From assembly GCA_020184695.1 (NCBI GenBank), contig JAANOX010000065.1, forward strand, positions 1 to 21,630: a stretch of DNA of 21,630 nt. Reading direction: 5' to 3'. Origin of the DNA: Histomonas meleagridis 2922-C6/04-290x (lineage: Eukaryota > Protista > Parabasalia). The notes beneath the pieces were generated by a model that was given only the letters and a program-made list of their open reading frames with translations, was not told where the DNA came from and made no database searches. Below are positions 2 through 21,252 of the stretch, one piece after another (the first letter of the stretch is position 1; every line of letters starts with the position of its first letter). A program made the position numbers and the translations under genes.

Positions 2-712
2 AATAATCCTGACAATTTTACAATATTATTCCAGGGGTTTGGTAATATAGATAGGCGTGCATTTTATAATATAATATTGAATCATATTCATAATCATATA
101 GGTGGGGTTAGGATTGGACAACATTATTTTATAAATTATCTACGTGAAGGTTGGGTTTGGTCTCAAAAACCATTATTACCTAATGTATATCAAGACATGA
201 TAAATACATTAGGTAATGGTCAAGACATCACCCCCGATTATACTAATATTATAGAATTCGAGGGGTCAGATGAAGATAATGCATGGATACCTTATTGGAT
301 CCATTTAGAGGGGTTTGGTATAGAAAGAGCACAAAATGTAGCTCAAAATGGGGCACAATTCTTCCCTTATTTAGTTTCAGAAAATATTCCGTATGTTATC
401 AAACAATATTTACGAAGATTACAAATCTTCGATTCACTATTAAATAGTGAAAATAAACAAAGGGAAGAATTGAATGACTGTTGTTTCATATATGCTTTAA
501 AACAGTCAGGTATCCCAGAAAAAGTGCTCGATAAAATCCGTTGTAGGATTTTAGTCAAATATCATATTGCTTCTAAACTTGATTTAGTTTGTAAAGATAA
601 TTCAATTTATGCTCAAATTCACAAAGTTTATAAATCCATCGATGAAGATGGTAAAACTAGAATTAGACTTATTGTTTATCAAAAACAAGGTCAAACATTG
701 GTAGGTATATAA
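2..712 (+). pseudogene. N-terminal fragment of a Maverick/Polinton protein-primed DNA polymerase (terminal-protein region), truncated at ~700
   Basis: The frame is open from base 2, so it runs off the left edge and the TTG start at 77 is not the real start. It contains QFFPYL...LRRLQIF...NDCCFIYALKQSG, which I recognise as resembling the N-terminal part of trichomonad Maverick polymerases. The last codons (VGI*) come from the unit A leader that begins at 701. Confidence 0.55.
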
Positions 713-715
713 TGC

Positions 716-792
716 GGTCGGGAATGATCACGAGGACCCCAGGGGCCCCGCCCCCGGCGGGGCCCCTGGGGTCCTCGTGATCATTCCCGACC
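716..792. repeat. Perfect 37-bp inverted repeat with 3-nt loop (leader hairpin 1, unit A)
   Basis: 716-752 GGTCGGGAATGATCACGAGGACCCCAGGGGCCCCGCC is the exact reverse complement of 756-792; the loop is CCC. Confidence 0.97.
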
Positions 793-806
793 TTTAGTTT
801 TCACTG

Positions 807-883
807 GGGGGATTGAAGGGGTCTGAGGCCTCCGGAGGGGTCCGAAGGGCACCTCCGGAGGCCTCAGACCCCTTCAATCCCCC
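807..883. repeat. Perfect 32-bp inverted repeat with 13-nt loop (leader hairpin 2, unit A)
   Basis: 807-838 pairs exactly with 852-883; the loop 839-851 is GGTCCGAAGGGCA. Confidence 0.97.
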
Positions 884-934
884 GAGTGTGCTCGCTCCGC
901 TCGCAACAAAAATCAAAATGATTTTTGTGAGCCA

Positions 935-1014
935 TACAATTCGTCTGAAAATTTGAATGCGCATTCAATTTTGAGAGAACGCGAAACTTTTTGATAGGAA
1001 CGATAGCACTTTTA
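935..1014. repeat. 80-bp leader segment with an exact inverted copy at 8850-8929
   Basis: Base-by-base reverse-complement match. Contains the 16-bp palindrome TTGAATGCGCATTCAA (953-968). Confidence 0.95.
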
Positions 1015-1139
1015 GCACCACTTTTCGCATAAACCTATCAAAAACATCACATTACCAACACGAATTGTCCCCGATTATCTTTGGTCGGACATTTATCCTA
1101 TTTAATTTATCTTTGATCGGAAGTTAGTAGTCAAAAAGC

Positions 1140-1171
1140 GACGGTTATTGTTTGGTCTCATCACAACCTTT
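1140..1171 (+). promoter_or_regulatory. Possible Trichomonas-type M3/M5 core promoter of the 113-aa gene
   Basis: GACGGTTA (1140-1147) fits the Myb-bound M3 consensus and CCTTT (1167-1171) fits M5, 11 nt before the ATG. Unit B keeps the M3-like site but not CCTTT. These are short motifs, so a chance match is possible. Confidence 0.35.
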
Positions 1172-1181
1172 ATTTTTATAA

Positions 1182-1523
1182 ATGCTTAAACCTGTGACTA
1201 AAACGTATTTTTGTACTTCCCAAAAAGAAAACCGTTTTCCGCCTGAATTTGTGGATTCTCAAAATCCTAGATATATAGTAGTACAACAATGTAAGTGTAA
1301 ATTTAAGGATTATTTAGTATCTGATGTTTCAATGCATGCTGATTTCATTAAATGTGATCATTATGAAGATTATTTTTGTATTTATACGAATGAAAATAGA
1401 ACTAAATATAAGAAATATGAATATAAAAGTAGAAAACCAAATTTTAAAATATGGTTTAAAGAAATGAATGGTAAAGAAATTGATCCTGAATATTTTATGT
1501 TAGAATTATTATTAATTTATTAA
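1182..1523 (+). CDS. Conserved 113-aa hypothetical protein, possibly a small beta-rich virion vertex (penton-like) protein
   Basis: Intact ORF with a near-identical copy at 14312-14654. Lies directly upstream of the fibre gene. The function is inference only. Confidence 0.7.
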   Translation: MLKPVTKTYFCTSQKENRFPPEFVDSQNPRYIVVQQCKCKFKDYLVSDVSMHADFIKCDHYEDYFCIYTNENRTKYKKYEYKSRKPNFKIWFKEMNGKEIDPEYFMLELLLIY

Positions 1524-1530
1524 ATAAAAA

Positions 1531-1535
1531 TCATT
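1531..1535 (+). promoter_or_regulatory. Trichomonad-type initiator (Inr) TCATT upstream of the fibre ATG; representative of many
   Basis: TCA(T/C)T lies within ~20 nt upstream of ATGs at 1531, 3721, 7100/7105, 16694 and 21241 (+ strand) and at 6359-6363, 8396-8400, 18928-18932 and 20047-20051 (- strand). Confidence 0.65.
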
Positions 1536-1543
1536 TTTTATCA

Positions 1544-3706
1544 ATGTTTAGTATTGAGAATGCTACGAAAGGAATAAAAACTAATGTTATTGCTGCTCCT
1601 GAAATTATTGACCAAGATGACTTACAAAAAGTTTTAGAAAATTATTCTACAAATGATCAAATAACAGAAAAACTTAATACTATAACTTCGATTACAATCC
1701 CACAATTATATTATAATAAATCACAATCAGATGAAAAATATTCTACAAAAAGTCATACTCATAATACAATAAATAATGATTTAACAGTAAATGGAAATGT
1801 ACAAGTTACTTCATTAAATGGTTTTCAATTGTCAACAGCAGAAGGTGGTAAATGGGATACAAAATTATATGTTCCATCTATTATCACATTAAAAGAAGAT
1901 GGTGTTGTAGAAGTTGGACAATATATTGATCTGCATAATAATGCAGATTACGATAAAGATAATACATGGAGAATAACTGCTAATACTAATTCATTAGATT
2001 TTAAATCAAAAACTGGTTCATTATTAAGTTTCGGAAGTAATGGCAATATTCAATGTTCAACTATAAATAATGTAGATACATCTGAAATATCTTTAAATGA
2101 TCATAATCATGATGAGATTTATGCTAAAAAAAATCATGAACATGTAAACTATGCTTCATCAGATCATACTCATAGTTATACTGATTTAAATGATAAACCA
2201 CAGTCATTTCCACCTTCAGATCATACTCATAGTTATAACGATTTAAATGATAAACCTGAAACATTTCCACCTTCAGTTCATACTCATAGTTATAACGATT
2301 TAAATGATAAACCTGAAACATTTCCACCTTCAGTTCATACTCATAGTTATAACGATTTAAATGATAAACCTGAAACATTTCCGCCATCAGAGCATATACA
2401 TACTTTTGATTATGTTAATTTAAAAAAGATTACTATATCTAATGATGATAAATGGCAACTAGCAGCTATTTCACAAGAAGAAAATAAAATAATATTTAGT
2501 ATTTCTCAAGGAGAAGATGATACTCAGCCTCCTGAAATAAAAGATTATTTCATAAATAGAACTGTAGAAAATTTATGTATTAACAAACCAAATTATAGTG
2601 ATATCCGAAATAAACCATCATCATTCCCACCTGAAACTCATACACATACAGAATATGCACTACTAAATCATACACATAATTTTAGTAATTTAACATGTAC
2701 TTCAATTAATGGTTTTGCTATTAATTCTTCTCCTTCTTATAGTAATATAAAGATTGGTGTTCCTTCAGTAGCAGTTATTAAAAATGATGGAGTTTTAGAA
2801 GTAGGACAATATATTGATTTACATCATTCTGATGATTATGGAAAAGATTATACTTATAGAATTCAAGCAACCCCAGAATCATTGAATTTAAAATCAGTAG
2901 ATGATAATAGTACATTTAAATTTTATTCTTTTGGCCAACTTTTTTGTCCTGAAATTAAATGTCCTTTAATAATTATGGATTCACCCACTATGGATGGATC
3001 AATAGAATCAAATGAAGTTTATCGCTATACATGGGAATTTAAAATATCTAATGATCATAAATTATGTTTTCAAGCATTAACACAACGTGGGACCCCTTCA
3101 GATGATCAAGGAGAATCTTCTGTGGGTACACCTGAGGATAGCACCTCCTCTGAAGATTTGGTATGGAACGTTGTGAATACTACATCATATTATATTAATC
3201 ATGTATTTAATCACAATCCTGGCTCAGGTTCAATTCCAATTAATACAACCATTACTCATAATGCTCCTGTTTCAGAAGATTTAACACAATTTCAAATTGG
3301 TTCACCAGTATTTTTAACAGGTAATGTTTTTTCATTAAAACAAAATGGCGTATATACTTCAAATTCATTTACAACAGATTGTATACCATCAGTTAAAACA
3401 ACAGGTACATATAAAGAATATATAGGTATTTGTGTAGCTAAACATGAAAATGGTTATAAAGCTTCAATAGGTGATGTTATTAAAAGAGAAGTAGAAATTT
3501 TACAAGATACTATTGATTTTGCTACACATGGAGATTTTTATTTTAGAGTAAATAATACTGCAGATTATGAAATTGGTGATGTAGTATTATTTGATAATAA
3601 TAAATTATCAGATGATTTAGTAATAACGACTAAAATATTAAATTCAATAGTTGGTAAAGTAACATATAAAATAGATGAATATTTATTAAGTGTATTTAAA
3701 GAATAA
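1544..3706 (+). CDS. Tail-fibre/spike-like protein (720 aa) with HxH shaft repeats
   Basis: Intact ORF. Has a YYNKSQSDEKY motif, 19-aa HTHSYNDLNDKPETFPPS repeats and two internal NGF...VPS...DGV(V/L)EVGQYIDLH...D(N/Y)T(W/Y)RI modules. These motif types are typical of phage fibre proteins. Confidence 0.75.
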   Translation: MFSIENATKGIKTNVIAAPEIIDQDDLQKVLENYSTNDQITEKLNTITSITIPQLYYNKSQSDEKYSTKSHTHNTINNDLTVNGNVQVTSLNGFQLSTAEGGKWDTKLYVPSIITLKEDGVVEVGQYIDLHNNADYDKDNTWRITANTNSLDFKSKTGSLLSFGSNGNIQCSTINNVDTSEISLNDHNHDEIYAKKNHEHVNYASSDHTHSYTDLNDKPQSFPPSDHTHSYNDLNDKPETFPPSVHTHSYNDLNDKPETFPPSVHTHSYNDLNDKPETFPPSEHIHTFDYVNLKKITISNDDKWQLAAISQEENKIIFSISQGEDDTQPPEIKDYFINRTVENLCINKPNYSDIRNKPSSFPPETHTHTEYALLNHTHNFSNLTCTSINGFAINSSPSYSNIKIGVPSVAVIKNDGVLEVGQYIDLHHSDDYGKDYTYRIQATPESLNLKSVDDNSTFKFYSFGQLFCPEIKCPLIIMDSPTMDGSIESNEVYRYTWEFKISNDHKLCFQALTQRGTPSDDQGESSVGTPEDSTSSEDLVWNVVNTTSYYINHVFNHNPGSGSIPINTTITHNAPVSEDLTQFQIGSPVFLTGNVFSLKQNGVYTSNSFTTDCIPSVKTTGTYKEYIGICVAKHENGYKASIGDVIKREVEILQDTIDFATHGDFYFRVNNTADYEIGDVVLFDNNKLSDDLVITTKILNSIVGKVTYKIDEYLLSVFKE
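2165..2392 (+). repeat. Four tandem 57-bp coding repeats (19 aa each) in the fibre gene
   Basis: Units start at 2165, 2222, 2279 and 2336 (CATACTCATAGTTAT...). Confidence 0.97.
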
Positions 3707-3737
3707 AAAAATATTTTATTTCATTTTATATTTTTAT

Positions 3738-4751
3738 ATGGATCCAATTTATAAAAGAAGAAGAGAAATACAAAAATCATTCGAAACATTAGTTAAAAAT
3801 GAATTAAATAATGAAAATTCACAATAAAAAGGTAATTTGAGTCTTGAAAATTTCATTAATTTTTTGAATGAAAAATATAATAAAGAGTTTAATTTTACAC
3901 CTGAATTTAATACTGGTACAAAGCCATTAGTTGAAATATACAACAATTTAGTTAATTATTATATAGATGTGAGCTTAGAAAGAACAACAGATGATCAATT
4001 TGAAAATAAACAATTTGACGATTATAAGCAATTTGAATATAATTTTATCAAACTTTTTATCGAAACTGAAAAAATTACACCTATAAATGGAAAAATTAAA
4101 AGAAAAACAATTCCAGAGCATTATGAATATTATATTAGAACGATTATCAAAAAATTGAATGAGATGTTTGCACGCAAAGTTTTTGAAGCTGAAAAAAAGC
4201 CTATCAAATTTAATGAATATTGTGAAGAATTAAAAAAATATTTATATGGTATAGAAATAATTGATAATAAAATTGGGAACGTATTTACATTCGATTCTGC
4301 TTATAGTAATTATTTGTTACAATATTTTAGTAAATTTCCTTATGACAATATATATAAATATTATAATATATATGAAGATTCTAAGAATTCACCTAATATT
4401 AACACAGGTTTCAAATCTCGTTCGAAAAACAAATATTTATTTGATAACTATATACTTCCATATCATATTGATTATTCAAAATTAGATTCACAATTTAAAC
4501 CTAATATAAATAATTTAGATTATTGTCCTTATAAAAGTTATAAAAAATATCAATTAAAATATATTGGTAATGATGGTGATATCATGAAATTGTATCGGTC
4601 TATATATAAAGGTAATGAAATAGAATTCAATTTATTATTAGGTACAACCAAATTTAAATCAAATTATAATCAAATCATCACTAATGTCGTGAAATTCCCG
4701 AGAACATTAAAGTTCACATATGAAAAAGGAGACATTAACAACTATTATTAA
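3738..4751 (+). pseudogene. 5' half of the integrase gene fused to a DNA polymerase 3' fragment
   Basis: The ATG at 3738 follows an Inr and is in frame with the 3837 ORF across one TAA (3825-3827). YNIYED...NINTGFK...KNKYLF...KKYQLKYIG matches the unit B integrase frame upstream of its first catalytic Asp. From 4570 the sequence switches to polymerase. Confidence 0.75.
4570..4746 (+). repeat. 177-bp copy of the polymerase 3' end (paralogous to 9801-9977)
   Basis: DIMKLYRSIYKGNEIEFNLLLGTTKFK...KFPRTL aligns without gaps to 9801-9977 (offset 5231). Confidence 0.93.
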
Positions 4752-4836
4752 TAATAACTTTACAATTAGCACTAGAACTATTATGTTCAGTATTATTCTT
4801 CCCTACATGTGGTGAGAAATCACTTATTTTAATAAT
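4743..4836 (-). pseudogene. 5' remnant of the ~175-aa gene seen at 18398-18920
   Basis: Near-identical to 18827-18920; the start codon is mutated to ATT and the rest of the gene is deleted. Confidence 0.8.
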
Positions 4837-4870
4837 AAAAAATAATGATTTTAAAAAAAATTTTCTTTAT

Positions 4871-6350
4871 TTAGAAACCACGTTTAGTGTTAATATATTT
4901 ATATAATGATGATTTAACATCTGCAAATTTATTCTTATCTAGTAAAATCTTAGAAACTGCTTGCTTTGAAGCACTTGACCAATAATTTTCTCCTGTATCT
5001 TCTCTAATATATTTCTTAGCTGTTTTCTCATCTTTAATATTTTGACCTGCCAATATCTTATTCATTCTTGTTTTTATAATGTCATTATAAAATTTAGCAG
5101 ATACACTAAGTATTGGAAACATTCCTTTAATCATAGCTAACTTTACAGGAAGTTGTTCATCATAAGCATTATTCTTTTGATAATCTTTAAGATAATCATT
5201 ATAAATTGGCTTAATAACATATCTAGTAAACACTTGATTTGCTGTTCTCCTTTTTGGTTTGTGTGTTTTATAAACATCTCTAACACCTGTATCTTGATAA
5301 TACTTTAAATTAAATTTATCAACAGTATCCATAATTTGTCTACCTTCTGGGGTAGGTTCTACCCTAGGATCATCAAATGGCTTATTATCATCATATGAAA
5401 CTTTTTCTTATATATTTATCCATAAATTCATCGAAATCCTCTATATGTTGACCTATTTGCTCTCAAAAAGTTTTCTATTTTTGTGGACTACCATATATTT
5501 TTGTTGTAAAAATCTTATATATTGACTTTCATAGGGGTCATGTTGTTTAACCGTCCATCCATTTACAAATTTTGCTCTTTTATGTTGATCTGCAACTATA
5601 ACATCTGGAATACCATCCTTATTTATATCTTCTTCAATTGCAGTCCAATGATATCTTGGATCCTTTTTATATCTTTATTTTGTTTTTTTCAACTAATGCT
5701 CTTGCTCCTTCTATTGTTTGAAGCTCTCTAATTTTTAACATCTTTCTTTAAATCAAGAATAAGATGTGCTAATGTATCCATATTTTCATCCAATATAACA
5801 TTACTTCTCCAGTATATTTATATTTATTCTTATCTTCTATAAAATCATACATTTTACCACCAGGAGTTCTAATGTGATATTCAGGAGGTCTTGGAGGTGG
5901 TGGTAAACTTTTGGTATTTGTTCTTCTTTTTTGATATTTTCCGTCCACTTTTTCATAACCCAATGGTGGAATTTCGTTAGACAAAATTGGTTTAATGTCT
6001 TCGATAGTTACTGTTGGCTGCACTGATGAAAAATGATCTTCATATTCTGTTTCTTCCAAAGCATCATCCTTTAGAACTTCTGGATGAAATAATGCTAGTT
6101 CATCAAAAAATGGATGTCCAATATTTTGTAAATACATCAATATATTATCCCATAAAGTAATCTCATCTATATCGGCTGTTTTTAATGTTCGCCATATTAT
6201 TATTTGATTATTGAGTTCATTTATAATAATTTTATCGGGTTGTTGATTTCGCCATTGTCTTAATTTTTTTTTAGCAGCACTCATATCAATACCAAGAACA
6301 TTGAGATAAGTAGCTATTTTATTATCTAAGCCCAATTCTTTATTTGACAT
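4871..6350 (-). pseudogene. Conserved Maverick hypothetical protein (~490 aa), frameshifted; joins ORFs 5769-6350 and 4871-5332
   Basis: The intervening frames read DENMDTLAHLILDLKKDV...DPRYHW...EDINKDGIPDVIVADQHKRAKFVNGWTVK. These match the unit B fragments at 18957-20038. Confidence 0.75.
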
Positions 6351-6382
6351 TTAAAAGAAATGAATTTTAATTTTTCATTTTT

Positions 6383-7077
6383 TTATCCAATTTTTATTTT
6401 TTGATTATTCACGTCGACGATCATTTTTTGATGTCCTGTCAGTTTTTGATAAACTGAATAAATTCGATCTTTAGTATAAGGCAATGGTATTTGAGCTATC
6501 ATATAACTTAATTGTTGTTTAGAGAAATTAGGAAATATAAATATAGTACTTACATTAGCTTTAACTTCAGCAGGTAAAGATTTCCAAAATTGTACAGCGA
6601 AAAATACAGAACATTGAATATGAGCTAATTTAGTAAATAATTGATTAAAATAATTAGTAGGTTTTTTAAATAAAGGACTATTAGCACAATCTTCAAAAAA
6701 TATTATAGTATGTAAAGTTAAATTATTAAAATTATTAATATATAATTTTTGAAATAATTCAGATATTTGATTATCTACTATTTTATTTTCCCAATGATTA
6801 TTTTTAAAATGTAGGATCATTTTTCTAATCCATTTTTAGTAATATAGATTAATATATGATTTCTAGGGATATTATTACTATTTTTAATAATTTCTCTAAT
6901 TATACATTGAGTTTTCCCACTTCTTTGTCTACCTACTGCTATATTTAAAGAATTATAAAGCACATTCACTTCTGGATGAATTTCACTTATTAATTCTTCA
7001 TTTAATTTAGGTTTATTTTTATATAAACAATAATCAATCATATTATCTAAGGCATCAATATTAATATCGTTTTCCAT
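6383..7077 (-). pseudogene. A32/FtsK-like DNA packaging ATPase, copy 1 (frameshift plus internal deletion)
   Basis: Walker A GRQRSGKT, Walker B-like TIIFFED, and a KLAH...AVQ motif in the position of the A32 R/H...Q motifs. It is 108 nt shorter than the 11182-11983 copy in the middle. Confidence 0.85.
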
Positions 7078-7116
7078 AAAATAAAATAATTTTATAAAAT
7101 CATTTCATTATTATTA

Positions 7117-7509
7117 ATGGAAGCTCTTTATACATGTTTTGCACAAGAATTTAAAGATTGTGATTTTAGTGCTATAAATATTAAACCTTCGTTTTCTATT
7201 GTAAAAAATAAAAATGTAATAACATTAACTGTAACTGTGTATAATAAATATCATAATTTATTAAGAAAACAAATTTATAAATTTATAGATGAAAAATATC
7301 ATCCTACTATTAAAAATCTATTACAAAATATAACACCTGAACAATTAGATAAAGCTTATCAAATATCTATAATGGAATTATTAAATCAAATATTTAATGA
7401 TGATTTTAATAAATATAATGCTTATGTAAATAAATTAAATGTTTTACAAAATTATGCTAACTCAATAATGCCTCAAAATCAAAATGAACAATCTCAAAAT
7501 GTTTTATAA
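7117..7509 (+). CDS. Conserved 130-aa hypothetical protein, divergent from the ATPase
   Basis: Intact ORF with a double TCATT upstream; near-identical copies at 10737-11138 and 20583-20971. Confidence 0.75.
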   Translation: MEALYTCFAQEFKDCDFSAINIKPSFSIVKNKNVITLTVTVYNKYHNLLRKQIYKFIDEKYHPTIKNLLQNITPEQLDKAYQISIMELLNQIFNDDFNKYNAYVNKLNVLQNYANSIMPQNQNEQSQNVL

Positions 7510-8165
7510 ATAAAAACTTAATGTCATTAATATTTTTTAACGTTCGAAAGGTGACACATTTGAATGAATAAATGTATAATGATTTTTATGTAATTTTTTA
7601 TGGACAGGGGATCAGTGTTAAAAAAATGAATTGATTTTTATCGTATTTTCCCACTTTTGAATTAACGATAGATTCAATTTTTACAGTTATGTACTAACTT
7701 AAGATATAAATTAATTCATCGAGATCATGGAAACGATCAGTAAACTATTTAAACAAAAAATATTTGATAGTACAGTCTTTATTCAGGTTAAAAAGTCATT
7801 GTGATCAAAACTCTCAGAAAACAACATTATCGCTATTCAATTTTATGATCGTATATTTTGACAAAAACTATGATCGTAACTTTGAATCTTACAGTCATTT
7901 TGGCATTTTTTTTCTTTAACGTTCATCTATCGTACTATTCAAAAATTTTATCACAAATTATTGAAATAAATTGAATGGTTAACATCACTTCACTATTTAA
8001 ATGTTGTCTAGATTACGAGTGGGGTGTGAAATTGAATAGTTTACTAAGGAGTATACCCTGATTGAATAGTTTATTGATCGGTATTTTTCGGATGAAAATG
8101 AAGATGCAAAGATCAAACTCATTTTTTAGACACAAAACAATGAAAAAAAATGATGTTGGAGTCGT

Positions 8166-8390
8166 TTACTCAATGTATTGAAGGATTCCTAATACTTCAT
8201 CAAATTTGTCCTTCATGATTAGGTCAATTAAGTAATCTTTGATCAGATCACGGTAATTGGTAAGGCAATTTGAGGGTTCCGCCGTGATCGACCCTTCCTC
8301 CCACAGCAACACGAAGTAGAGGACTTCGTCGTCGCCTTCCTTACGGAAGTAGTGGTCAAGGATGCATTGGACCGGGTACTCTTGTTCCAT
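8166..8390 (-). CDS. Standalone chromodomain-like protein (74 aa)
   Basis: MEQEYPVQCILDH...YFVLLW...TAEPSNCL follows the chromodomain pattern (EY.V..ILD...L+.W...T.EP..NL). The ATG at 8390 has a TCATT Inr just upstream. GC is much higher than in neighbouring genes. Confidence 0.65.
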   Translation of the reverse strand: MEQEYPVQCILDHYFRKEGDDEVLYFVLLWEEGSITAEPSNCLTNYRDLIKDYLIDLIMKDKFDEVLGILQYIE

Positions 8391-8528
8391 CGTCAAATGA
8401 ATTTGGGGTACCCTAATATAAACTATTCAAATATAATGATTTATTTAAAACTATTATGATGTTTTTTGAATCATTTCAAGTTCATTTGGTATATGTTAAT
8501 ATGATTTTTTAAAATAATTACTTTTTAT

Positions 8529-8849
8529 TTAATAACCATCAGGAATACCATTAGCATAATATTTCAATCCATTATGTAAATTTAATGTGAAATAAGTATC
8601 ACGACAAATGAATAATTGAGGGGGAGGTGGATGATTTCCAGCATCATCAACATTATAATAAGTATCGTTAGCTTGAGTATATATAGGTTGTTCCTTAATT
8701 TGTATCGGGATGTTTTGACCGTTAGAGTCTAAGCCGTCGAATACGTAACCACCACGCGAACGTTCACATTGTATATTAAGCATAAAAGAAGTAGCATCAC
8801 TTAATGTATTATTATATCTTGTACCATTTGAAGCATTCCTATCCATAGT
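8529..8849 (-). pseudogene. 3' fragment of a conserved Maverick gene, probably the major capsid protein
   Basis: YNNTLSD...QCERSRGGYVFDGLDS...NDTYY...HPPPPQLFICRDTYF. A homologous end sits at 21555-21630. The first residues of the listed ORF (8850-8873) come from the inverted 80-bp insert. The capsid assignment is from recollection and is unverified. Confidence 0.45.
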
Positions 8850-8929
8850 TAAAAGTGCTATCGTTCCTATCAAAAAGTTTCGCGTTCTCTCAAAATTGAA
8901 TGCGCATTCAAATTTTCAGACGAATTGTA
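8850..8929 (-). repeat. Inverted copy of 935-1014 at the junction between the capsid-like and polymerase fragments
   Basis: Exact 80-bp reverse complement. Confidence 0.95.
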
Positions 8930-9985
8930 GAAATTAAAATTACAAAAGTTAGCAAACATTATCCCTTCCCTCTTATAGTTCAATAGATAAATGGTTTAAA
9001 CCTTAATGACGACAATAACATAAGTGAAGAAAATCCCGTCACTATGGTCGTCGACAATATAGCCTTGGAAGATCTTATAGTATATCAAAATATACGATTC
9101 CAAATAGTACGAGGCTATTATTGGGATGAGGGTTATGATCCCACCATTCAAAATGTAATCAAAGAAATATTCCAAAAACGGGTGGAATATAAACGACAAA
9201 ATAACCCTCTCCAACTAATATATAAATTAATTATGAATAGTTGTTACGGCAAAACAATTGAAAAGCCGATCAACAAAGAATGGAAGTATTTAAAGAAAGG
9301 CGATAGAGCTGATAACTACGCCTCTAAAAATCACTTTCGAATAATAGAAAGAATTCTGATTAATGATCCAAATATAGAATCATTTAATATAAAACGACCT
9401 ATAGATAAGCATTTTAACTTATCGTTGTTAGGCGTTCAAATATTAAGCATGTCAAAGAGAATCATGAACGAAGTGATGTGCTTAGCATATGACATTGGCT
9501 GTAAAATTCCTTATCAAGATACAAACTCAATGCAAATAGTAAAATCGGATTTACCTAAATTAGAAACAGCCTTCGAGGCTAAATATAATAGAAAACTAAT
9601 AGGTAATAATTTAGGGCAATTCCATTCCGTTTTTACTAGTGATGATGGTAGAAGCGATGTCAACTGCGCAGTTGAAAGCTACTTCATCATGAAGAAAACC
9701 TATATCGATAAACTATTCTATAATGATTATGGTATAGGTTATATGTCTAGGGCAAAAGGTATACCTACCGATACTAGATATATACATGCAAATCTTGATT
9801 ATGATGATGATATCATGAAATTGTATCGTTCTTTATATGAAGGTAATGAAATAGAATTTAATTTATTATTAGGTACAACCAAATTTAAATTAAATCCTAA
9901 TCAAACTATCACTAATGTCGAAAAGTTCCCGAGAACGTTATAGACCACATATGGAAAAGGAGACGTTAACAACTATTTTAAATGA
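8927..9985 (+). pseudogene. polB: C-terminal fragment of a protein-primed family B DNA polymerase
   Basis: Motif B KLIMNSCYGK (9224-9253); motif C reads YQDTNS (9512-9529) instead of YxDTDS; GQFHS and KKTY follow. The frame extends upstream to VEIKITKVSKHYPFPL across a TAG (8984), and downstream past a TAG (9941) to a TGA at 9985. Motif A and the exonuclease domain are absent. Confidence 0.92.
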
Positions 9986-10303
9986 GTAAAAAGTGCAATC
10001 GTTATTTTGTATCGTTCTTATGAATTTTTTTGTTTTGAATGTACAGTTAGATCGTCATTCAAAAAGTGAAAAGTGCTAAAATACTTAACGGTTTTTGAGC
10101 GTAACTTTGAAAATGAATGGGATGTATTTTATATCTCACAAAGTCGGCCCACGAACGGTTATATCAAATTTCTCAAGTATTGAAATCACTGAACTGAATA
10201 ACATGCAAAGGAACTATTTCTCTTATCTCTTTCTCCTTTAAATAGTTGGGAATTAACTGAAAACCTAACTAGATGTAAAAACGCCGTAGCCTTCTATATA
10301 GTT

Positions 10304-10603
10304 ATGCTTAAAGATGGTAGTCAAGGTGAAGGCCTTACCACAACTGATAGGACTAATTTAAATGAAATACGGGCCATCAAGAAGTGTATCGATCGCCTCT
10401 GGAGCAACCTAAGCCGAGATTCTAAAGAGAATGTATTTTCTTATATGGATGCAAATAGGCTAGAATTCGGTTTAGGTTCCGACTATGTCTTCAAACTAAT
10501 GAGCAAGGATAGACAAGTCGAAAAGTTTCCTGCAGTACCCTCTGAGAAATTAAGGCAATGCTTCATTGATTCTGATCAAGAAGAATTAATGCCTCCGTTT
10601 TAA
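10304..10603 (+). CDS. Hypothetical protein, possibly part of a longer broken gene (~10203-10681)
   Basis: GC-richer coding-like sequence. The frame is open upstream to 10202, with an out-of-frame ATG at 10203. It continues in frame after the TAA for 25 codons to 10681. No recognisable family. Confidence 0.45.
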   Translation: MLKDGSQGEGLTTTDRTNLNEIRAIKKCIDRLWSNLSRDSKENVFSYMDANRLEFGLGSDYVFKLMSKDRQVEKFPAVPSEKLRQCFIDSDQEELMPPF

Positions 10604-10736
10604 ATGTCCCCAAGACCGAAAGAGGATGAAGAAAAAACTAGAAGACGTCCGCCACTCTCAAGCAAATGCCCTAAAAAGTAATGAGCTAGAATAGCTCCTC
10701 AGTCATTAATAAAAAATGACTTGACCAATTTTTTTT

Positions 10737-11138
10737 TTATTGATAATTATTTTCATTTTGAGTGTTTTCTTCTTGAGTTTGTTGAGTTAATATATTAGCA
10801 TATTGTTGCAATACATTTAATTTACCTGAGTAGGCATTATATTTATTTAAATCATTATTGAATATTTGATTTAATAATTCCATTATAGATATTTGATAAG
10901 CTTTATCTAATTGTTCAGGTGTTATATTTTGTAATAGATTTTTAATAGTAGGATGATATTTTTCATCTATAAATTTATAAATTTGTTTTCTTAATAAATT
11001 ATGATATTTATTATACACAGTTACAGTTAATGTTATTACATTTTTATTTTTTACAATAGAAGACGAAGGTTTAATATTTATAGCACTAAAATCACAATCT
11101 TTAAATTCTTGTGCAAAACATGTATAAAGAGCTTCCAT
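10737..11138 (-). CDS. Second copy of the 130-aa protein (133 aa), inverted relative to unit A
   Basis: Near-identical to 7117-7509. Confidence 0.75.
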   Translation of the reverse strand: MEALYTCFAQEFKDCDFSAINIKPSSSIVKNKNVITLTVTVYNKYHNLLRKQIYKFIDEKYHPTIKNLLQNITPEQLDKAYQISIMELLNQIFNNDLNKYNAYSGKLNVLQQYANILTQQTQEENTQNENNYQ

Positions 11139-11181
11139 TAATAATAATGAAATGATTTTTATAAAAATTATTTTTATTTTT

Positions 11182-11983
11182 ATGGAAAACGATATTAATA
11201 TTGATGCCTTAGATAATATGATTGATTATTGTTTATATAAAAATAAACCTAAATTAAATGAAGAATTAATAAGTGAAATTCATCCAGAAGTGAATGTGCT
11301 TTATAATTCTTTAAATATAGCAGTAGGTAGACAAAGAAGTGGGAAAACTCAATGTATAATTAGAGAAATTATTAAAATTAGTAATATTAGTCCTAGAACT
11401 CATTTATTAATTTATATTAATAAAAATGGATTAGAAAAATGATCCCTACATTTGAATCATTAAAACCTTTAATAAAGATTACAATTTTATATGTAGCTGA
11501 AAATCAAGCTGAAGATATAGTTAAAGATATATTAAAATGGAAACAATTTTATAATGAAATTAAAAATAATCATTGGGAAAATAAAATAGTAGATAATCAA
11601 ATATCTGAATTATTTCAAAAATTATATATTAATAATTTTAATAATTTAACTTTACATACTATAATATTTTTGAAGATTGTGCTAATAGTCCTTTATTTAA
11701 AAACCTACTAATTATTTTTAATCAATTATTTACTAAATTAGCTCATATTCAATGTTCTGTATTTTTCGCTGTACAATTTTGGAAATCTTTACCTGCTGAA
11801 GTTAAAGCTAATGTAAGTACTATATTTATATTTCCTAATTTCTCTAAACAACAATTAAGTTATATGATTGAACAAATACCATTGCCTTATACTAAAGATC
11901 AAATTTATTCAGTTTATCAAAAATTAACTGGTCATCAAAGAATAATTATTGACGTTAATAATCAAAAAATAAAAATTGAATAA
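11182..11983 (+). pseudogene. A32/FtsK-like packaging ATPase, copy 2 (full length, frameshifted)
   Basis: MENDINID...GRQRSGKT...[shift ~11435-11446]...PTFESLK...TIIF[shift ~11670]EDCAN...KLAHIQC...AVQFWKSL...KIKIE*. Confidence 0.87.
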
Positions 11984-12085
11984 ATAATTTTTTTTTTGAA
12001 ATCATTATTATCTGCGAAGATTCAATGATTATCCTGATTTTATTATTTATTTAAACCCAGAGAAGAAATTTAAATTAGTAATAAT

Positions 12086-12102
12086 ACACACACACACACA
12101 CA
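12086..12102. repeat. (AC)8 microsatellite
   Basis: ACACACACACACACACA, followed by a short GC-rich stem-loop. Confidence 0.9.
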
Positions 12103-12241
12103 GCGCTATGTGAGCTTCGTGCTACGCACTCGCTCCCACCCGCGCTACATAAACTAAAGGATGAACGGCTAAAATCGATTGAATTCTCATAAATCGGTTG
12201 GTTTTGATTGAAAGTAATAAAATATATTTAAATTCATGATG

Positions 12242-12499
12242 ACATTTATATTTAAAATGTGTGAGGCATGAATCCGGCTGAGCTGTTGTTAATCCTATGT
12301 GGATTTTAGTGTTTTGTTGTTAATCCTATGTAGATTTTAGTGTTTGGAGCTTAAAGTTGTTATTAACTGAGGTTTTGAATGTAAAAAGTACCTTTTAATT
12401 TTCAAAGATGTTTTTTTAACCCTTTTTCTAACCCTTTTTTTAACCCTTTACGAAACGGAGAAAATGAGCATTTTTTGAATGATTTAACGCAAAAGTTGA
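12242..12499. repeat. Direct repeat R1 (non-coding)
   Basis: Matches 13206-13449, and its 3' part matches 12521-12710. Contains a duplicated TTGTTAATCCTATGT(G/A)GATTTT and several T(n)AACCC units. Confidence 0.93.
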
Positions 12500-12520
12500 C
12501 GGTTGATATATCAGTAAGAA

Positions 12521-12753
12521 TTTGTTGTTAATCCTATGTAGATTTTAGTGTTTGGAGCTTAAAGTTGTTATTAACTGAGATTTTGAATGTAAAAAGTACC
12601 TTTTAATTTTCAAAGATGTTTTTTTAACCCTTTTTTTAACCCTTTTTTTAACCCTTTACGAAACGGAGAAAATGAGCATTTTTTGAATGATTTAACGCAA
12701 AAGTTGAATGACAAAAAAATAAATTATTTTTAAACGAAACCGTAAAGTTTTTT
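12521..12753. repeat. Direct repeat R2 (5'-truncated), overlapping the HNH stop codon
   Basis: Matches 12313-12499 and continues to match R3 through TTTAAACGAAACCGTAAAGTTTTTT. Confidence 0.93.
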
Positions 12754-13203
12754 AAATTTTGAATAATAAAGTGCAAAACTTGAATTATTAGTATCTCTGC
12801 AATAAACATGAGCAGAACCGCGCTTATCATAACAGATTGTTAATTTTCTGAATTTAATACCGTTCCAAAAGTAAAACGCATCTGTTTTATCATCATAATA
12901 ATAATCTTCTAATTGATGATTGCCATACTTATTAACTTCAATTGAATCCTCGTTGATTTCGTCAAAGAATTCAAAGTCTTTTCCTTTACCTGAACTATTA
13001 TTTTTTAGATTTTCTGACTGATAAACCCGGAGATTTGAAACGTGATTGTTGGAACGGTTGTGATCTATGTGATCGATAAATGGCTTGTTTTCTGGATTTG
13101 GAATAAATTGTAACGCAATGATACGATGTTTAAGATATAATTTTCTGTTTAATTTACATGCAATATAACCGGTAGTTTTAATTGAAAATTCTTTAATGAC
13201 ACC
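12730..13203 (-). pseudogene. HNH endonuclease (HNH_3/phage homing-endonuclease type), 157-aa open frame lacking its start; not in the ORF track
   Basis: Manual translation: GVIKEFSIKTTGYIACKLNRKLYLKHRIIALQFIPNPENKPFIDHIDHNRSNNHVSNLRVYQSENLKNNSSGKG...YYSKFKKLYGFV*. It is preceded by ATG-TGA at 13209-13204. Confidence 0.88.
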
Positions 13204-13205
13204 TC

Positions 13206-13495
13206 ACATTTATATTTAAAATGTGTGAGGCATGAATCCGGCTGAGTTGTTGTTAATACTATGTGGATTTTAGTGTTTTGTTGTTAATCCTATGTGGATT
13301 TTGTTTGAACTTAAAGTTGTTATTAACTAAGATTTTGAACTCAAAAAGTACCTTTTAATTTTCAAAGATGTTTTTCTAACCCTTTTTTTGAACCCTCAAC
13401 GAAACGGAGAAAATGAGCATTTTTTGAAGGATTTAACGCAAAAGTTGAATGACAAAAAAATAAATTATTTTTAAACGAAACCGTAAAGTTTTTTT
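13206..13495. repeat. Direct repeat R3
   Basis: Matches R1 from its first base (ACATTTATATTTAAAATGTGTGAGG) and R2 to its last base. Confidence 0.93.
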
Positions 13496-13845
13496 GATTG
13501 TAGAAAATAAACTTTTTTAACGGTTTTCGAAATAAAATTTTAACGGTTTTCTGTTTGATTATTGGGATAGATTAACGGACGTCGAAAATGACGGTTGATG
13601 AATTTTAACGGTCGAGTGATTGTTGTAAAATGTGTTGTGAAATATATTCGAATAGATAAAGAAAAATATCTACGATGAATGGCAAATGTAAAAATTTTTG
13701 AATTGACATTGAATTTAGTGGCAAAACGATTAATAATTGAATGAGTACTGAAAAATTGGCGGGCAAAATGATTTGAATGAGTTCTGAAAAAGTTAATTTT
13801 GCGCCTGATGCACTTAAAACGCGTGTTTCAGTAGGTATATAATGC

Positions 13846-13922
13846 GGTCGGGAATGATCACGAGGTCCCTAGAGGCCCCGCCCTCGGCGGGGGCCCTAGG
13901 GACCTCGTGATCATTCCCGACC
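13846..13922. repeat. Leader hairpin 1, unit B (37-bp arms, 2 mismatches, loop CTC)
   Basis: 13846-13882 pairs with 13886-13922. Confidence 0.95.
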
Positions 13923-13933
13923 TTACTTTCACT

Positions 13934-14008
13934 GGGATTTCCGGGGTCTTCGACCCCCGGAGGTGCCCTTCGGACCCCTCCGGAGGTCTCAGACCCCTTC
14001 AATCCCCC
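13934..14008. repeat. Leader hairpin 2, unit B (imperfect arms, inverted loop)
   Basis: The loop 13964-13976 is TGCCCTTCGGACC. The left arm is diverged and holds a local GGGGTC-TTC-GACCCC stem. Confidence 0.9.
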
Positions 14009-14311
14009 GAGTGTGCTCGCTCCGCTCGCAACAAAAATCAAAATGATTTTTGTGAGCCATACAATTCGATAGAAAATTTGAATGAGCATTCAATTTTGAG
14101 AGAACGCGAAACTTTTTCATAGGGACGATAGCACTTTTTATGCCACTTTTCGCATAAACCTATCAAAAACCTCGTATAACCAGCGCAAAATGTCCCCGGT
14201 TATGTTTGGCCGGACATTTATCCTATTCAATTTATCTTTGGTCAGAGGTTTGTAGTCAAAAAGCGACGGTTATATTGTTTGGTCGCATGGCAAACTTTAT
14301 TTTTTTCATAA

Positions 14312-14676: not shown

Positions 14677-16677
14677 ATGTTTAGTATTGAGAATGCTACG
14701 AAAGGTATAAAAACTAATGTTGTTGCTGCTCCTGAAATTATTGATAAAGATGACTTACAAGAACTTTTAGAAAATTATCCTACAAATGATCAAATAACAG
14801 AAAAAAACTTAATACTATAACTTCGATTACATTACCTCAATTATATTATAATAAATCGCAATCAGATGAAAAATATTCAACAAAAAGTCATACTCATAAT
14901 ACAATAAATAATGATTTAACAGTAAATGCGAATGTACAAGTTAATTCATTAAATGGTTTTCAATTAACAACTGCAGAAGGTGGTAAATGGGATACAAAAT
15001 TATATGTGCCATCTATTATTACATTAAAAAGAAGATGGTGTTGTGGAAGTTGGACAATATATTGATATGCATAATAAGGCATATTGTTATAAAGATAATA
15101 CATGGAGAATAACTGCTAATACTAATTCATTAGATTTTTAAATCAAAAAAACTGGTTCATTATTAAGTTTTTGGAAAGTAATGGAAATATTCAATGTGCA
15201 ACTATTAATAATTTAGATACAACTAAGATATCTTTAAATGATCATAATCATGATGAGATTTATGCTAAAAAAGATCATGAACATACAAACTATGCTTCAT
15301 CAGAACATACTCATAGTTATAACGATTTAAATGATAAACCTGAAACATTTCCACCTACAGTTCATACTCATAGTTATAATGACTTAAATGATAAACCTGA
15401 AACATTCCCACCTTCAGAACATACGCATAGTTATAATGATTTATCTGATAAACCTGAATCATTTCCACCCTCAGTACATACACATACGGAGTATGCTCTG
15501 AAAGATCATAATCATGATACAAAATATGCTGCTACAAATCATACACATAGTTATAATGATTTAACAGATATTCCTACAGTATCAAATCCAGAAAATATCA
15601 CATGTTCAACAATTAATGGTTTTTGCTTTAGATTCATCTCCTGCAGATTCAAATTTAAATATTAGTGTTCCTTCAATTGCAGTTATTAAAAACGATGGTG
15701 TTTTAGAAACAGGTCCTTATATAGATATGCATACTAGTGATGGATATGAAAATGATTATAGTTTCAGAATACAATGTACAGGGAATGTTATGGAATTTAA
15801 ACCAACACTAAAAAGGTTGCAATGGTTTTTTTATTACACAGCAGCTTTTGATGCATTAGGTTGTACTAAAATTAAATTGCTCTCAAAATTATGTACTCTG
15901 TAAAAACTAATGGTATTGATAATACAGGAAATATAAAAATCCGGTACTGGTCAATTCACTAGTTTAGAATCTACTAAATTAACTTTATTTCACAGTATAA
16001 TTGAAGAATCAGGTAATACATATCAATTATTATGGAGAATTTATGGATGTACACCTACTGAAGATAAAAAATATGGAAGATTATATTTTGAATCTGTAAC
16101 ACAAAAAGAAACAAGATAATGATACATTTTCTGATATATATAGTGCAATATATTATATTGCAACTACATTTAATACATTTGAAGGAACTGGAGGTTTAGC
16201 ACAAATAAATACAACTATTACTCATAATGCACCTGTTGAAGAAGACTTAACACAATTTCAAATTGGTTCACCAGTATTTTTAACAGGTAATGTTTATGCT
16301 TTAACCAATGAAGGTAAATATGTTACAAATACTTCATCAACTGATTGTATTCCATCAGTTAAAACATCAGGTACTTATAAAGAATATTTAGGGATATGTG
16401 TAGCTAAACATGGAACTGGATATAAAGCTTCAATAGGTGATGTTATTAAAAGAGAAATCGAAATTTTACAAGATACTATTGATTTTTGCTACACATGGAG
16501 ATTTTTTTATTTTTAGAGTAAATAATACCGCAGATTATGAAATTGGTGATGTAGTATTATTTGATGGTAATAAATTATCAGATGATTTAGTAATAACTAC
16601 TACAAATATTAAATTCAATAGTTGGTAAAGTAACAGGTAAAATAGATGAACATTTATTGAGTATATTTAAAGAATAA
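14677..16677 (+). pseudogene. Unit B fibre gene, broken by multiple small indels
   Basis: Same N-terminus (MFSIENATKGIK) and C-terminus (...LLSIFKE*) as 1544-3706. The ORFs at 15171, 15616 and 16437 are pieces of it. Confidence 0.88.
15306..15476 (+). repeat. Three tandem 57-bp coding repeats in the unit B fibre
   Basis: Units start at 15306, 15363 and 15420. Confidence 0.95.
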
Positions 16678-16712: not shown

Positions 16713-18401
16713 ATGGAAGAACGTGAACCAAAAAAAGAACCTAGCATCAATAAATCTCCATTAGATGAAGTACGACGATTAGCTCTACTTAATGATAAAG
16801 GACCTGAAAAACAGCCTTCTTTTTACGAATTTTTAATGCAAAATTTAAAATTGATTTTTCGTAATCTGAAATTTGATTTATCATTAAATAATTTTTTAAA
16901 ACTAATGGATGAAGCAACAAAATCTGTTAGAAATGGGGTTCCAATATCACCCACATATAGAATTCAATTTAAGTCTATGAAAGAATATTATCAAATCATT
17001 ATTAATAGTTTTTATTATAAATTTTTCAAAAACCCAAATTAATACAAATTTAGATTTTGATGAATTTAAGAAATTAATTAATGATATTATTAAAAAATAT
17101 AATATAGATTATATTGATGGACATATAGGTTTATATCCATTAAATGAATATTATAACTATTATAAATCTATTATTCTAAAATATACACCTTTAAGAAAAT
17201 TACTTCATAAAATATTTGCAAAAGAAGTAGAAAATGATTTTAAAAATGGGAAACCTAAAACTATACAAGAATTTATTAATTTCTTAATTACAAAATTAAC
17301 TAACTCAAATATAACAGAAAATATTCCATTAGATTATGCTTATTCATTATATCTTTTATATTATTTTTATCATTTTAGATATGTAACTCCAAATGATTCT
17401 TACAATATTTATGAAGATAAACAAAATATTAATACAGGTTTTAAAACTTTAAATAAAAATAAATATTTATTTAAAAAATTAAATATACCTTATAGTATTG
17501 ATTATACAAATATAGGTAAAATAAAACCGAATATAAATTATTTTCCTTTCAAATTAAATAAAAAATATCAATTAAAATATATTGGAGGTAATGGAGAATA
17601 TCAAATGGATTTATTTTTTTCACATAGTGATGAATTTAATTATGATTATTGTTATTTATTAGCTGTAGAAGTACAAACTAGATTTTTATTTGGTACTTTC
17701 ACTAATATTAAAATAAACGATAAACATTATAAAAAATCAATCGAAAGTGTAGCTAAAGCTTTATTTGAACTTTATGGTACAGGTTTATTTAATCCTAAAA
17801 TTATTCATTGTGATTCAGAAACAACATTTTTTTATCAAAACCTTTACAATATATTTCAAATCATTTAATTGGTACTAAAATAATTTATGTTAAAAAAATA
17901 ATAATTAAAAATAAATCTTATCCTATACATTCATCTTTAGCTATAATTAATAGAATTTGTAGAACTATTAGAGATATGGCTGATAATATGGGTTTAGAAT
18001 ATATTCAACCTCATGATATGAATAAAATTATACATAATTATAATCATACTTATCATAAAACATTATCTAAATTAAATCATAAAAAAATATCACCATATGA
18101 AGCTAAAATAAAACAAAAATCTTTTGGTTTATCTCTACATAAATTAAATTATAATATTATGAAACAAAAAGGATTTTATTTACCTCCTGGTACAACAGTA
18201 ACAGTTTATAACACAGATCAATTAAAAAAGAGATCAAAAATATTACCAGATATTTATATAGTAGATAATTTTGAAAAAGGTAAATTTAATATTCATAATG
18301 ATAAAGGAATAAAAATGTCAGTACCAAGATATTTATTAAATCCAGTTCCAAATGCAATTATTATACCTTCAAAAGAAAAAGATCCAATGATGTTTTATTA
18401 A
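16713..18401 (+). pseudogene. Retroviral-like (rve) integrase of Maverick type, frameshifted
   Basis: YQMDLFF (first Asp 17608), YCYLLAVEVQTRFLF, IIHCDSE (second Asp 17812), SSLAIINRICRTIRDM, IIHNYNHTYH. A long frame lacking an ATG links ~17030 to 17605. Frameshifts at ~17030, ~17830 and ~17895. Confidence 0.88.
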
Positions 18402-20971: not shown

Positions 20972-21252
20972 ATAAAAATCTAATTATTTAGTATATGTAA
21001 ACTATTTAAACAAATATTATTGTGTTTACCGTAAATAAACTAAATAAAAAGTTTACTGAATTATAAACTTTTGAAAAATATTTTATCACAATACAATTAT
21101 GTTGTGATAAAATGACGAAAAATGACTTGTCAAATGACACAAAGTCCTAACCTATTTTCTCAATATTTGAAAGGGTGTTCGTTTCAAAATAATAAAAATA
21201 TATCAAAAAGTTTAATTGAGAGACAATATTTTGCATGACTTCACTTTCAGGA

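Follow-up and report, generated by a model that had tools for sequence, protein, structure and literature searches.

Hairpins near the end of a Maverick/Polinton-type element of Histomonas meleagridis, with paired arm changes and an inverted tip probably made by template switching

Two units, A and B, in a 21,630-nt stretch of Histomonas meleagridis DNA (contig JAANOX010000065.1, the window in what follows) are dispersed copies of a Maverick/Polinton-type endogenous virus. Near the element end lie hairpins whose paired changes and inverted tip probably arose by template switching from one arm to the other, on strands that are predicted to be single-stranded, and folded, during copying of the end. 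Our best reading of these hairpins is that of a predicted single-stranded DNA end signal, kept symmetrical by copying, and a role as DNA seems more likely than one as RNA. Features are collected in Table 1.

Table 1. Coordinates of the features in the window
Feature	Position	Strand	Remarks
Left terminus, copy A	700..715	+	GGTA-GGTA tandem at start; 16 nt precede hairpin 1
Hairpin 1, copy A	716..792	.	37-bp perfect stem, 3-nt loop
Hairpin 2, copy A	802..888	.	32-bp perfect core, imperfect tip
Invertible centre of hairpin 2	832..858	.	orientation 1 in A
Hairpins 3 and 4, copy A	889..928	-	hairpin 3: GCGGAGC 894-900, tandem GA/GA; hairpin 4: 10-bp AT stem
Terminal non-coding arm of A, remainder to first ORF	929..1181	+	A-B comparison
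Conserved 113-aa ORF	1182..1523	+	52-56% identity to capsid-adjacent ORFs in L046-L048
720-aa repeat-containing ORF	1544..3706	+	unnamed and phage-tail clusters, low recognition score
Packaging-ATPase-like gene, two frames	6383..7077	-	Pox_A32 E=0.009, below cut-off
Double jelly-roll major capsid protein, C-terminal piece	8529..8873	-	72% identity to P0154
Inverted 80-nt copy of 935-1014	8850..8929	-	100% identical to A
Protein-primed DNA polymerase B, C-terminal part	9044..9943	+	PF03175 E=7e-9
Left terminus, copy B	13830..13845	+	contig depth step, unlike flanks
Hairpin 1, copy B	13846..13922	.	stem of the family type; stem-breaking changes at 13873 and 13893 private to B
Hairpin 2, copy B	13930..14013	.	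centre inverted, left arm divergent
Hairpins 3 and 4, copy B	14014..14053	-	GCGGAGC at 14019-14025
Integrase-like gene of copy B, two frames	16981..18401	+	rve E=0.06, below cut-off

The hallmarks found in the window are the protein-primed polymerase B (PolB) and the double jelly-roll capsid protein, the matches to an ATPase and an integrase being weak. The closest named proteins are those of Histomonas meleagridis (91-97% identity). The PolB fragment, which is not tied to copy A or B, is 91% identical to one of them, and in the relative L065 PolB lies on one contig with homologues of the ATPase and of the fibre. The ORF at 2-712 was considered as the polymerase N-terminus, and this was unsupported. 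From its sequence, the 720-aa ORF may be fibre-like, as a lead only; it has a syntenic homologue in L048. The translation of the ATPase-like gene contains a Walker A-like motif, and its homologue in L050 matches Pox_A32 with E=0.0013, also below the cut-off. L048 carries, at the equivalent place, an intact 385-aa homologue of the integrase-like gene, for which no Pfam or PDB match was obtained; a homologue search for the gene at 16981-18401 itself found none. No Pfam match to a maturation protease or minor capsid protein was detected among 22 ORFs scanned.

The model of P0154 (pLDDT 93) matches the capsids of iridovirus, PBCV-1, Sputnik and mavirus; the initial capsid model was unusable (pLDDT 32). 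The capsid piece is matched by 32 proteins in two clusters; the 28 listed are all named H. meleagridis. Scans of viral contigs with the capsid query gave no match, and a DUF4106 match was sought for the capsid and none was found. The accessible main text of the H. meleagridis genome paper (PMC8529796) does not mention Mavericks/Polintons and reports 0.23% interspersed repeats. The capsid-like proteins of this species are deposited as hypothetical; the supplements of PMC8529796 and PMC10120064 may list them and the elements.

Both copies are rearranged and incomplete. A reading of A and B as tandem units was dropped because their upstream flanks are unlike and their middle genes diverge. In the read contigs many different flanks adjoin the element end, indicating insertion at multiple places. 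At the end of copy A, loose ends with varied flanks stop at 698-700, and homology with B starts at 701. At the edge of copy B, between 13829 and 13830, summed contig depth jumps from 143 to 101,368, and contigs with unlike flanks number 12 in run X1 and 7 in run X2 (flank agreement about 0.5). Mavericks/Polintons are bounded by terminal inverted repeats of 100-1500 bp and a 5-8-bp target site duplication. Here the left end is sharp, and the right arm is present only as the 80-nt inverted segment 8850-8929, likely a remnant of A's right terminal repeat, devoid of hairpins, to judge by its sequence; the right termini of A and B both lie beyond the window. Pattern scans for the terminal and hairpin DNA yielded 0 matches in viral contigs, 0 in prokaryote genomes and, in metagenomes, just 2 20-mers, in bacterial DNA rich in GC and attributable to chance. 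The end region had no DNA match in three genomes with related elements.

The hairpins are GC-rich islands, as the preliminary description had noted: 74% and 68% GC, versus 27% for the window. Each of the four long hairpins folds better than 200 of 200 shuffles. That description spoke of leader hairpins; the hairpins are real, but their place is better read as the terminal non-coding arm of the element. They do not form its physical end, since the bases ahead of hairpin 1 are non-palindromic and hairpin 2 lies ~100 nt inside. At the tip of hairpin 2 is the mini-hairpin CCGAAGG, on the + strand in copy A (842-848) and on the - strand in copy B (13967-13973). CCGNAGG has 9 matches, every one in hairpin 2, versus 0.96 expected, and GCGNAGC 3 versus 0.42; hairpin 1 has no GNA loop, whichever strand is read. 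As DNA, mini-hairpins of the GNA type exceed their RNA counterparts in stability (PMC13037366).

Three paired changes had been reported between the copies, and all are present: in hairpin 1 at pairs 21/57 (A-T to T-A, for which no wobble intermediate is possible) and 25/53 (C-G to T-A), and in hairpin 2 at pair 27/61 (G-C to A-T). The chance of at least two complementary double hits, given 6 stem substitutions over the 37 pairs of hairpin 1, is 0.0009-0.0017. The accompanying claim that compensation preserves the stems holds for these pairs but omitted that 8 substitutions break a stem and that 3 nt are deleted. Two of the breaking changes, at pairs 28/50 and 30/48, are in hairpin 1, which also has one loop change; the left arm of B's hairpin 2 has 6 unmatched substitutions and the deletion. 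The range first given, 716 to 13922, leaves out copy B's hairpin 2. The broken arm makes its own 6-bp hairpin at 13943-13957, and the folding energy of hairpin 2 goes from -50.9 (A) to -22.6 kcal/mol (B). Stem-breaking at least as frequent as compensation, named beforehand as grounds against conserved stems, is found in the A-B pair (8 versus 6) but not among common family variants. Divergence between A and B is 9% in hairpin 1, 9% in 935-1014 and 4% in the first ORF, while over 889-934, with hairpins 3 and 4, 0 of 46 positions differ.

Copy B carries the 27-nt centre of hairpin 2 as an exact reverse complement of A's. All 7 tip differences (839, 841, 844-846, 849 and 851) vanish upon reverse complementing, and reverse-complemented A equals B across 30 consecutive bases (13957-13986). 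The outermost mismatch of hairpin 2, 5/83, keeps its orientation, which places the switch points inside the arms. The orientation of B's tip is tied to the right flank by 4 contigs among those listed, with 2-6 differences where a flip needs 7; for that of A, the assembly of the window is the sole source. An assembler working with short words can flip a perfect stem of 32 bp. Loop inversion is beyond the reach of selection and is possible by arm-to-arm template switching, so that the tip favours switching.

Variants of the family were counted in assembled contigs of runs X1 and X2, unphased and among the variants listed. The paired variant 736/772 stands at 31-38% and 25-50%, left and right frequencies not being independent because self-complementary arms let contigs be placed on either arm. 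The corresponding pair 13866/13902 is absent from the variants listed in B coordinates and is shown as 736/772 in A coordinates. The variant at 13987 reaches 27-29% and that at 13999 20-25%, with the partner letter of the latter in flank-anchored loose ends. Both alleles of 736/772 and 13987 occur in 11-34 contigs from two samples. The both-arm allele of A, 740C/768G, amounts to <1% of summed depth per arm in X1 and X2. At 13873 and 13893 the family letter has 98-99.6%, which makes B's breakers private, and the stem-breakers 13879, 13888 and 13891 are in 1-2 contigs each. The letters of B's broken hairpin 2 left arm are found in 6-13 contigs, so a perfect hairpin 2 is perhaps dispensable. Deletions that remove hairpins recur (joints 721-775, 723-890, 733-893 and 739-1018), and in runs X3 and X4 depth drops over the hairpins. 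Each of the putative RNA runs X5 and X6 contributed 3 contigs; these cover flank junctions and a deletion copy that the DNA runs contain too, and the tip of hairpin 1 is in none of them.

In two related elements, L049 and L074, whose first ORFs are 60% identical, a hairpin capped by GAA/TTC and unrelated to those of the window precedes the start codon by ~130 nt. Its stem is 14-15 bp long; between the two elements its arms differ symmetrically and its loop lies in opposite orientations. Their sequence context suggests that this place matches that of the window's hairpins. Among PolB-related viral contigs, a top-5% hairpin was present at 12 of 54 contig ends (2.7 expected), and a strong hairpin was absent at the other 42. 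Assemblers tend to halt at hairpins, which is relevant to this count. In 43 viral loci, mini-hairpin motifs numbered 3 in the 17 kb of right ends against 117 in 485 kb, with no enrichment at these ends.

The switching that we propose could proceed as follows. Protein-primed strand-displacement synthesis would begin at the terminus, and for a short time neither strand of the first ~230 nt would be paired. The nascent strand might then jump onto the opposite arm, by which a new letter would be copied to its partner or erased, or alternatively onto the displaced strand, which would invert the tip. More weakly, the folded cluster may be kept as it shields the end or presents it to the terminal protein/polymerase, the integrase or the packaging ATPase. 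Copies would decay after insertion by one-sided changes and deletions. The template-switch mechanism itself is published (PMC8794818, PMC8604942, PMC2690592). Of the two explanations first offered for the paired changes, the copying of one arm from the other is backed by the inverted tip and by the both-arm change nearly private to A. Selected structure does not follow from the covariation, since template switching yields an identical pattern (PMC8794818, PMC8604942), and an R-scape-type test cannot separate the two. 'Compensatory' changes in near-perfect hairpins are thus not evidence for RNA structure. Copying also accounts for the symmetry without any selection.

Could the hairpins be neutral palindromes that maintain themselves, their arms homogenised and their tips flipped as a by-product of host or element replication? 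Perfect stems arise and persist by template switching with no need of selection (PMC8794818), the divergence of hairpin 1 equals that of the non-coding DNA beside it, and hairpin-deleted copies occur. Nevertheless, deletion-prone palindromes persist in the family, unrelated GAA-capped hairpins occupy the matching place in L049 and L074, and hairpins 3-4 are identical in both copies; we consider a purely neutral origin unlikely. A structured RNA from the element end, such as a microRNA-like transcript, siRNA precursor or VA-like decoy with stems under selection, is more improbable still. Near-perfect hairpins of 77-87 nt and an RNA folding z of about -14 for A speak for it, as does TCACT, found at the foot of hairpin 2 in A (801-805) as well as in B (13929), presumably an initiator-like motif, such 5-mers occurring every 125 nt. 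However, all 21 of 21 Rfam matches were under the gathering score (those to miRNAs were rejected as generic hairpin resemblance), no tRNA and no ordered A-box/B-box pair on one strand was found, and the 37-bp stem of A is free of G-U pairs. The tip moreover changes strand between copies, and GNA mini-hairpins favour DNA (PMC13037366).

Classical two-step compensation in a stem under selection, without copying, fits the fact that 2 of the 3 paired changes are transitions, open to a G-T wobble route, and that the common variants are paired. The 27-nt inversion is out of its reach (about (0.1/3)^7 by hand arithmetic), and a two-sided allele at <1% of the family is left unexplained, so we give it very little credence. 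Finally, reads of one arm may have corrected the other during assembly or polishing, or the assembler may have flipped the tip. Copy B has many homopolymer frameshifts, the depth loss in X3 and X4 falls on the hairpins, and A's tip orientation has no independent sighting. Against this stand the recurrence of both alleles of 736/772 and 13987 in two samples, the anchoring of B's orientation to its flank, and the like flip in L049/L074, where stems are 14-15 bp; an artefact is scarcely credible. We conclude that arm-to-arm template switching is the probable source of the paired changes and of the inverted tip.

The end replication of Polintons/Mavericks is, to our knowledge, still a model without direct evidence. 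A bolder proposal, tentative and on balance doubtful, is that parabasalid Mavericks carry inside each end a hairpin cluster like that of Streptomyces telomeres, as a working part of the replication origin, which would fold on the exposed strand, be bound by the element's end-processing proteins and be copied through both strands, giving flip and flop tips in each lineage. If true, a eukaryotic protein-primed virus would combine priming by a terminal protein with strand switching at hairpins. Invertible tips are a likely sequence record of strand switching at element ends, countable in long reads.

The element resembles the parabasalid Mavericks of the Metamonada capsid group (PMC10120064) in its protein-primed PolB (pPolB), double jelly-roll capsid, ATPase-like and integrase-like genes, a sharply defined end that adjoins many different flanks, and parabasalid host; it differs in that its copies are rearranged and incomplete and its capsid has no DUF4106 match. 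No description of long subterminal hairpins with invertible tips was found for parabasalid Mavericks in the literature searched, nor anything on Maverick terminal hairpins in the accessible parts of PMC11296320, PMC6431247 and PMC11071308. Casposon TIRs contain palindromes (PMC4046053). Long palindromes also occur at the ends of virophages/PLVs of Halocafeteria seosinensis, inside terminal inverted repeats and with a proposed role as replication aid (bioRxiv 10.64898/2026.07.28.741278); those adjoin the target duplication and belong mostly to non-pPolB elements. Here, by contrast, the stem lies 16 nt inside, in a cluster of four, in a pPolB element, and the tip is inverted.

Parvoviruses have flip/flop hairpin telomeres in which the end is covalently closed and the whole hairpin flips. 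Poxvirus telomeres likewise exist as two inverted-complementary forms of a mismatched hairpin, which is a covalently closed end and flips whole (PMC8956199), whereas here the hairpin is internal and only the tip flips; unlike in both groups, no resolvase or Rep was seen. With Streptomyces telomeres (PMC7205883) the end shares a linear terminal-protein-type replicon, about 160-230 nt of stacked palindromes, GNA loops (here in hairpins 2 and 3) and compensatory changes, a likeness of features and not of sequence kinship; the stems are far longer here and the element integrates. Unlike at the circovirus melting-pot origin (PMC2690592), neither a Rep nicking site nor a Rep gene was seen. The hairpins share with that origin and with template-switched inverted repeats (PMC8794818, PMC8604942) arm homogenisation, loop inversion and instantaneous compensatory pairs, albeit with an inverted tract of at least 13 nt and 7 changes, versus loops of 2-8 nt in those systems.

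Both hairpins of the preliminary description were found in the two element copies, A and B, as GC-rich islands near the left element end, and the three paired changes in their stems are exactly those it gave. In hairpin 1, two complementary double changes among six stem substitutions correspond to P = 0.0009-0.0017. The compensatory pattern holds for these pairs, but stem-breaking changes had gone unmentioned: hairpin 1 has two, and hairpin 2 has six together with a 3-nt deletion. The account of paired stem differences had also overlooked an inversion at the tip of hairpin 2, where 13957-13986 in B is the reverse complement of A; the seven A/B differences at the tip are a single event. The original observation is real, and was partly misread. 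The stem-base mismatch of hairpin 2 has the same, unflipped orientation in A and B, meaning that the inversion limits fall within the hairpin arms. The B orientation was linked to the right flank in at least 4 read contigs (B as reference), that of A being known from the window assembly.

Coordinates of the two long hairpins in each element copy
Feature	Copy A	Copy B
Hairpin 1	716-792	13846-13922
Hairpin 2	802-888	13930-14013

Summed depth of the read contigs on B rose from 143 to 101,368 across 13829/13830, and 12 and 7 contigs, in the two samples, extended past this left end into dissimilar flanks. The same kind of end was found in A at 698-700. Hairpin 1 therefore begins 16 nt inside the left end. 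This end starts with a 4-nt tandem repeat, and short terminal repeats are compatible with protein-primed initiation. An 80-nt inverted copy of 935-1014 (8850-8929, 100% identical to A) lacks the hairpins. A 236-aa open frame (2-712) is truncated at the A terminus, and insertion of A may have interrupted a gene.

Variation across the element family was read as summed contig depths in two samples of one study (X1 and X2), which are not copy numbers; the arms being self-complementary, a contig may align to either one, and variants are unphased. On this scale, among the best 40 of 59 rows with A as reference, the pair 736/772 was segregating in X1 (43,896/114,191 and 60,552/120,040) and in X2 (23,103/75,734 and 21,119/83,687). 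Among the rows listed, B's letters prevailed at 740 (98,000/98,761) and 768 (123,317/123,799), so that the A allele is rare and altered on both arms. Among the 11 rows listed with B as reference, variants were found at 13987 (36,727/135,033) and 13999 (33,264/169,135), the partner letter of the latter occurring in spacer-anchored loose ends; the pair 13866/13902 was not among these rows, and three further variants, in 1-2 contigs, had no partner there. The B breakers were near private, the pairing letter making up 49,146/49,953 of family depth at 13873 and 68,466/68,749 at 13893. Joints removing part or all of the hairpins were recurrent among read contigs with either reference.

Paired changes and inversion are probably explained by a known mutational process: arm-to-arm template switching is described, in sections of PMC8794818 and PMC8604942, as producing homogenised arms, instant compensatory pairs and inverted loops, and both strands are described as templates at the palindrome of circovirus origins (an excerpt of PMC2690592). 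In the element, strand-displacement synthesis from the terminus would leave both strands exposed at the hairpins, and so would offer repeated opportunities for switching. Arm symmetry quite probably comes from copying, and selection acting alone, in two steps, is very improbable. An assembly artefact is less probable still. Three right-arm variants (about 3%, 6-13 contigs) are complementary to B's odd left arm, whose letters are therefore not an error of this assembly. These variants could reflect a second type with symmetric arms, a form that is flipped, or left arms that are partial.

A selected role of the hairpins as single-stranded DNA is predicted with a slight preference, and symmetry made by copying combined with such a role is the reading that we favour to a somewhat greater degree; that the palindromes are neutral is unlikely. 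Mini-hairpins are present at the hairpin 2 tip (CCGAAGG) and in the smaller neighbouring hairpin 3 (GCGGAGC). A review passage (PMC13037366) names these as DNA mini-hairpins, present in the priming signal ssiA and in the promoter of N4, and reports that their RNA counterparts are less stable. The GAA cap lies on the + strand in A and on the − strand in B, a switch that would suit DNA better than a stranded RNA. An RNA role, to which an initiator-like 5-mer at the hairpin 2 base could point, is improbable; searches for an Rfam family, a tRNA and Pol III boxes were all negative.

The element is predicted to be a Maverick/Polinton-type endogenous virus of a protist, the defining features being taken from passages of bioRxiv 10.1101/2023.08.22.554363 and PMC10120064. 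The window carries a fragment of protein-primed PolB (91% to one Histomonas meleagridis protein), a capsid fragment (97% to H. meleagridis proteins) and weak A32 ATPase and rve (integrase) matches. These named proteins point to the likely host. A full-length relative of the capsid fragment has a predicted structure (pLDDT 93) matching iridovirus, PBCV-1, Sputnik and mavirus capsids. Gene order is conserved in relatives that were assigned to assemblies of gut bacteria: 113-aa ORF, fibre-like, integrase-like, ATPase, 130-aa ORF. The alignment of A with B covers 701-2345 (91%) and several later blocks, and the window holds a cluster of rearranged copies.

Other pieces were observed in the window. 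The block of ATPase and 130-aa ORF occurs a third time, inverted, at 10754-11987 (93-96% identity to A and B). A chimeric 304-aa ORF (3837-4751) joins a 5′ part like the B integrase-like gene (4285-4584) to a polymerase C-terminus (4561-4752, 88% to 9792-9983). The fibre-like gene contains 57-nt coding repeats (2131-2405 and 15261-15570), whose number and sequence are not the same in A as in B. Two small ORFs that are related but oppositely oriented (8166-8396 and 21235-21492) separate the 130-aa ORF from the capsid end; they had no Pfam match, and we take them by eye to be chromodomain-like. At 12085-12145, a (CA)n run precedes an imperfect, GC-rich hairpin that includes a − strand GCGTAGC mini-hairpin; repeated non-coding blocks come next, up to 13511, and another mobile element may end here. 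Three related non-coding repeats of 140-250 nt lie at 12215-13511; two of them form a tandem with a spacing of 208 nt and share 99% identity.

Homologous first ORFs (60%) and a common promoter-proximal motif are found in two related elements, L049 and L074. About 130 nt upstream, each element has a hairpin with symmetric arm differences, whose loop, read toward the gene, is TTC for one element and GAA for the second. In L074, a second GAA-capped hairpin adjoins the first, then come non-coding DNA and an IS1595-type transposase, a layout that suggests an element end. In 43 viral contigs with related PolB, a top-5% hairpin was found at 12 of 54 contig ends (8 surpassing all inner windows), a count that includes some duplicate ends; contig ends are also non-coding, and assemblers stop at hairpins. 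One contig (L004) has a hairpin 9 nt inside an AGTAGT end; mini-hairpin motifs were not enriched at the ends of these contigs. Long palindromes were also seen in two viral contigs (L044, 116-623; L025, 5308-5442), one set close to the contig end. Close relatives of this virus (L046-L050, in assemblies G001-G003) have been assigned to assemblies of gut bacteria and of Gastranaerophilales, and are likely mis-binned DNA from an element of a gut protist; one of their capsid sequences occurs on 438 contigs.

The element is of a known kind, but the part in which the hairpins lie has been little described. Searches of an open-access library that lacks the founding Polinton papers listed no account of pPolB Mavericks with invertible subterminal hairpins. 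Virophages and PLVs of Halocafeteria are reported to have palindromes in their terminal repeats, mainly in elements that lack pPolB (bioRxiv 10.64898/2026.07.28.741278), and such palindromes are also reported for casposons (PMC4046053). Streptomyces telomeres, as described in part of PMC7205883, present a likeness in their stacked palindromes with such mini-hairpin loops, at ends capped by a terminal protein.
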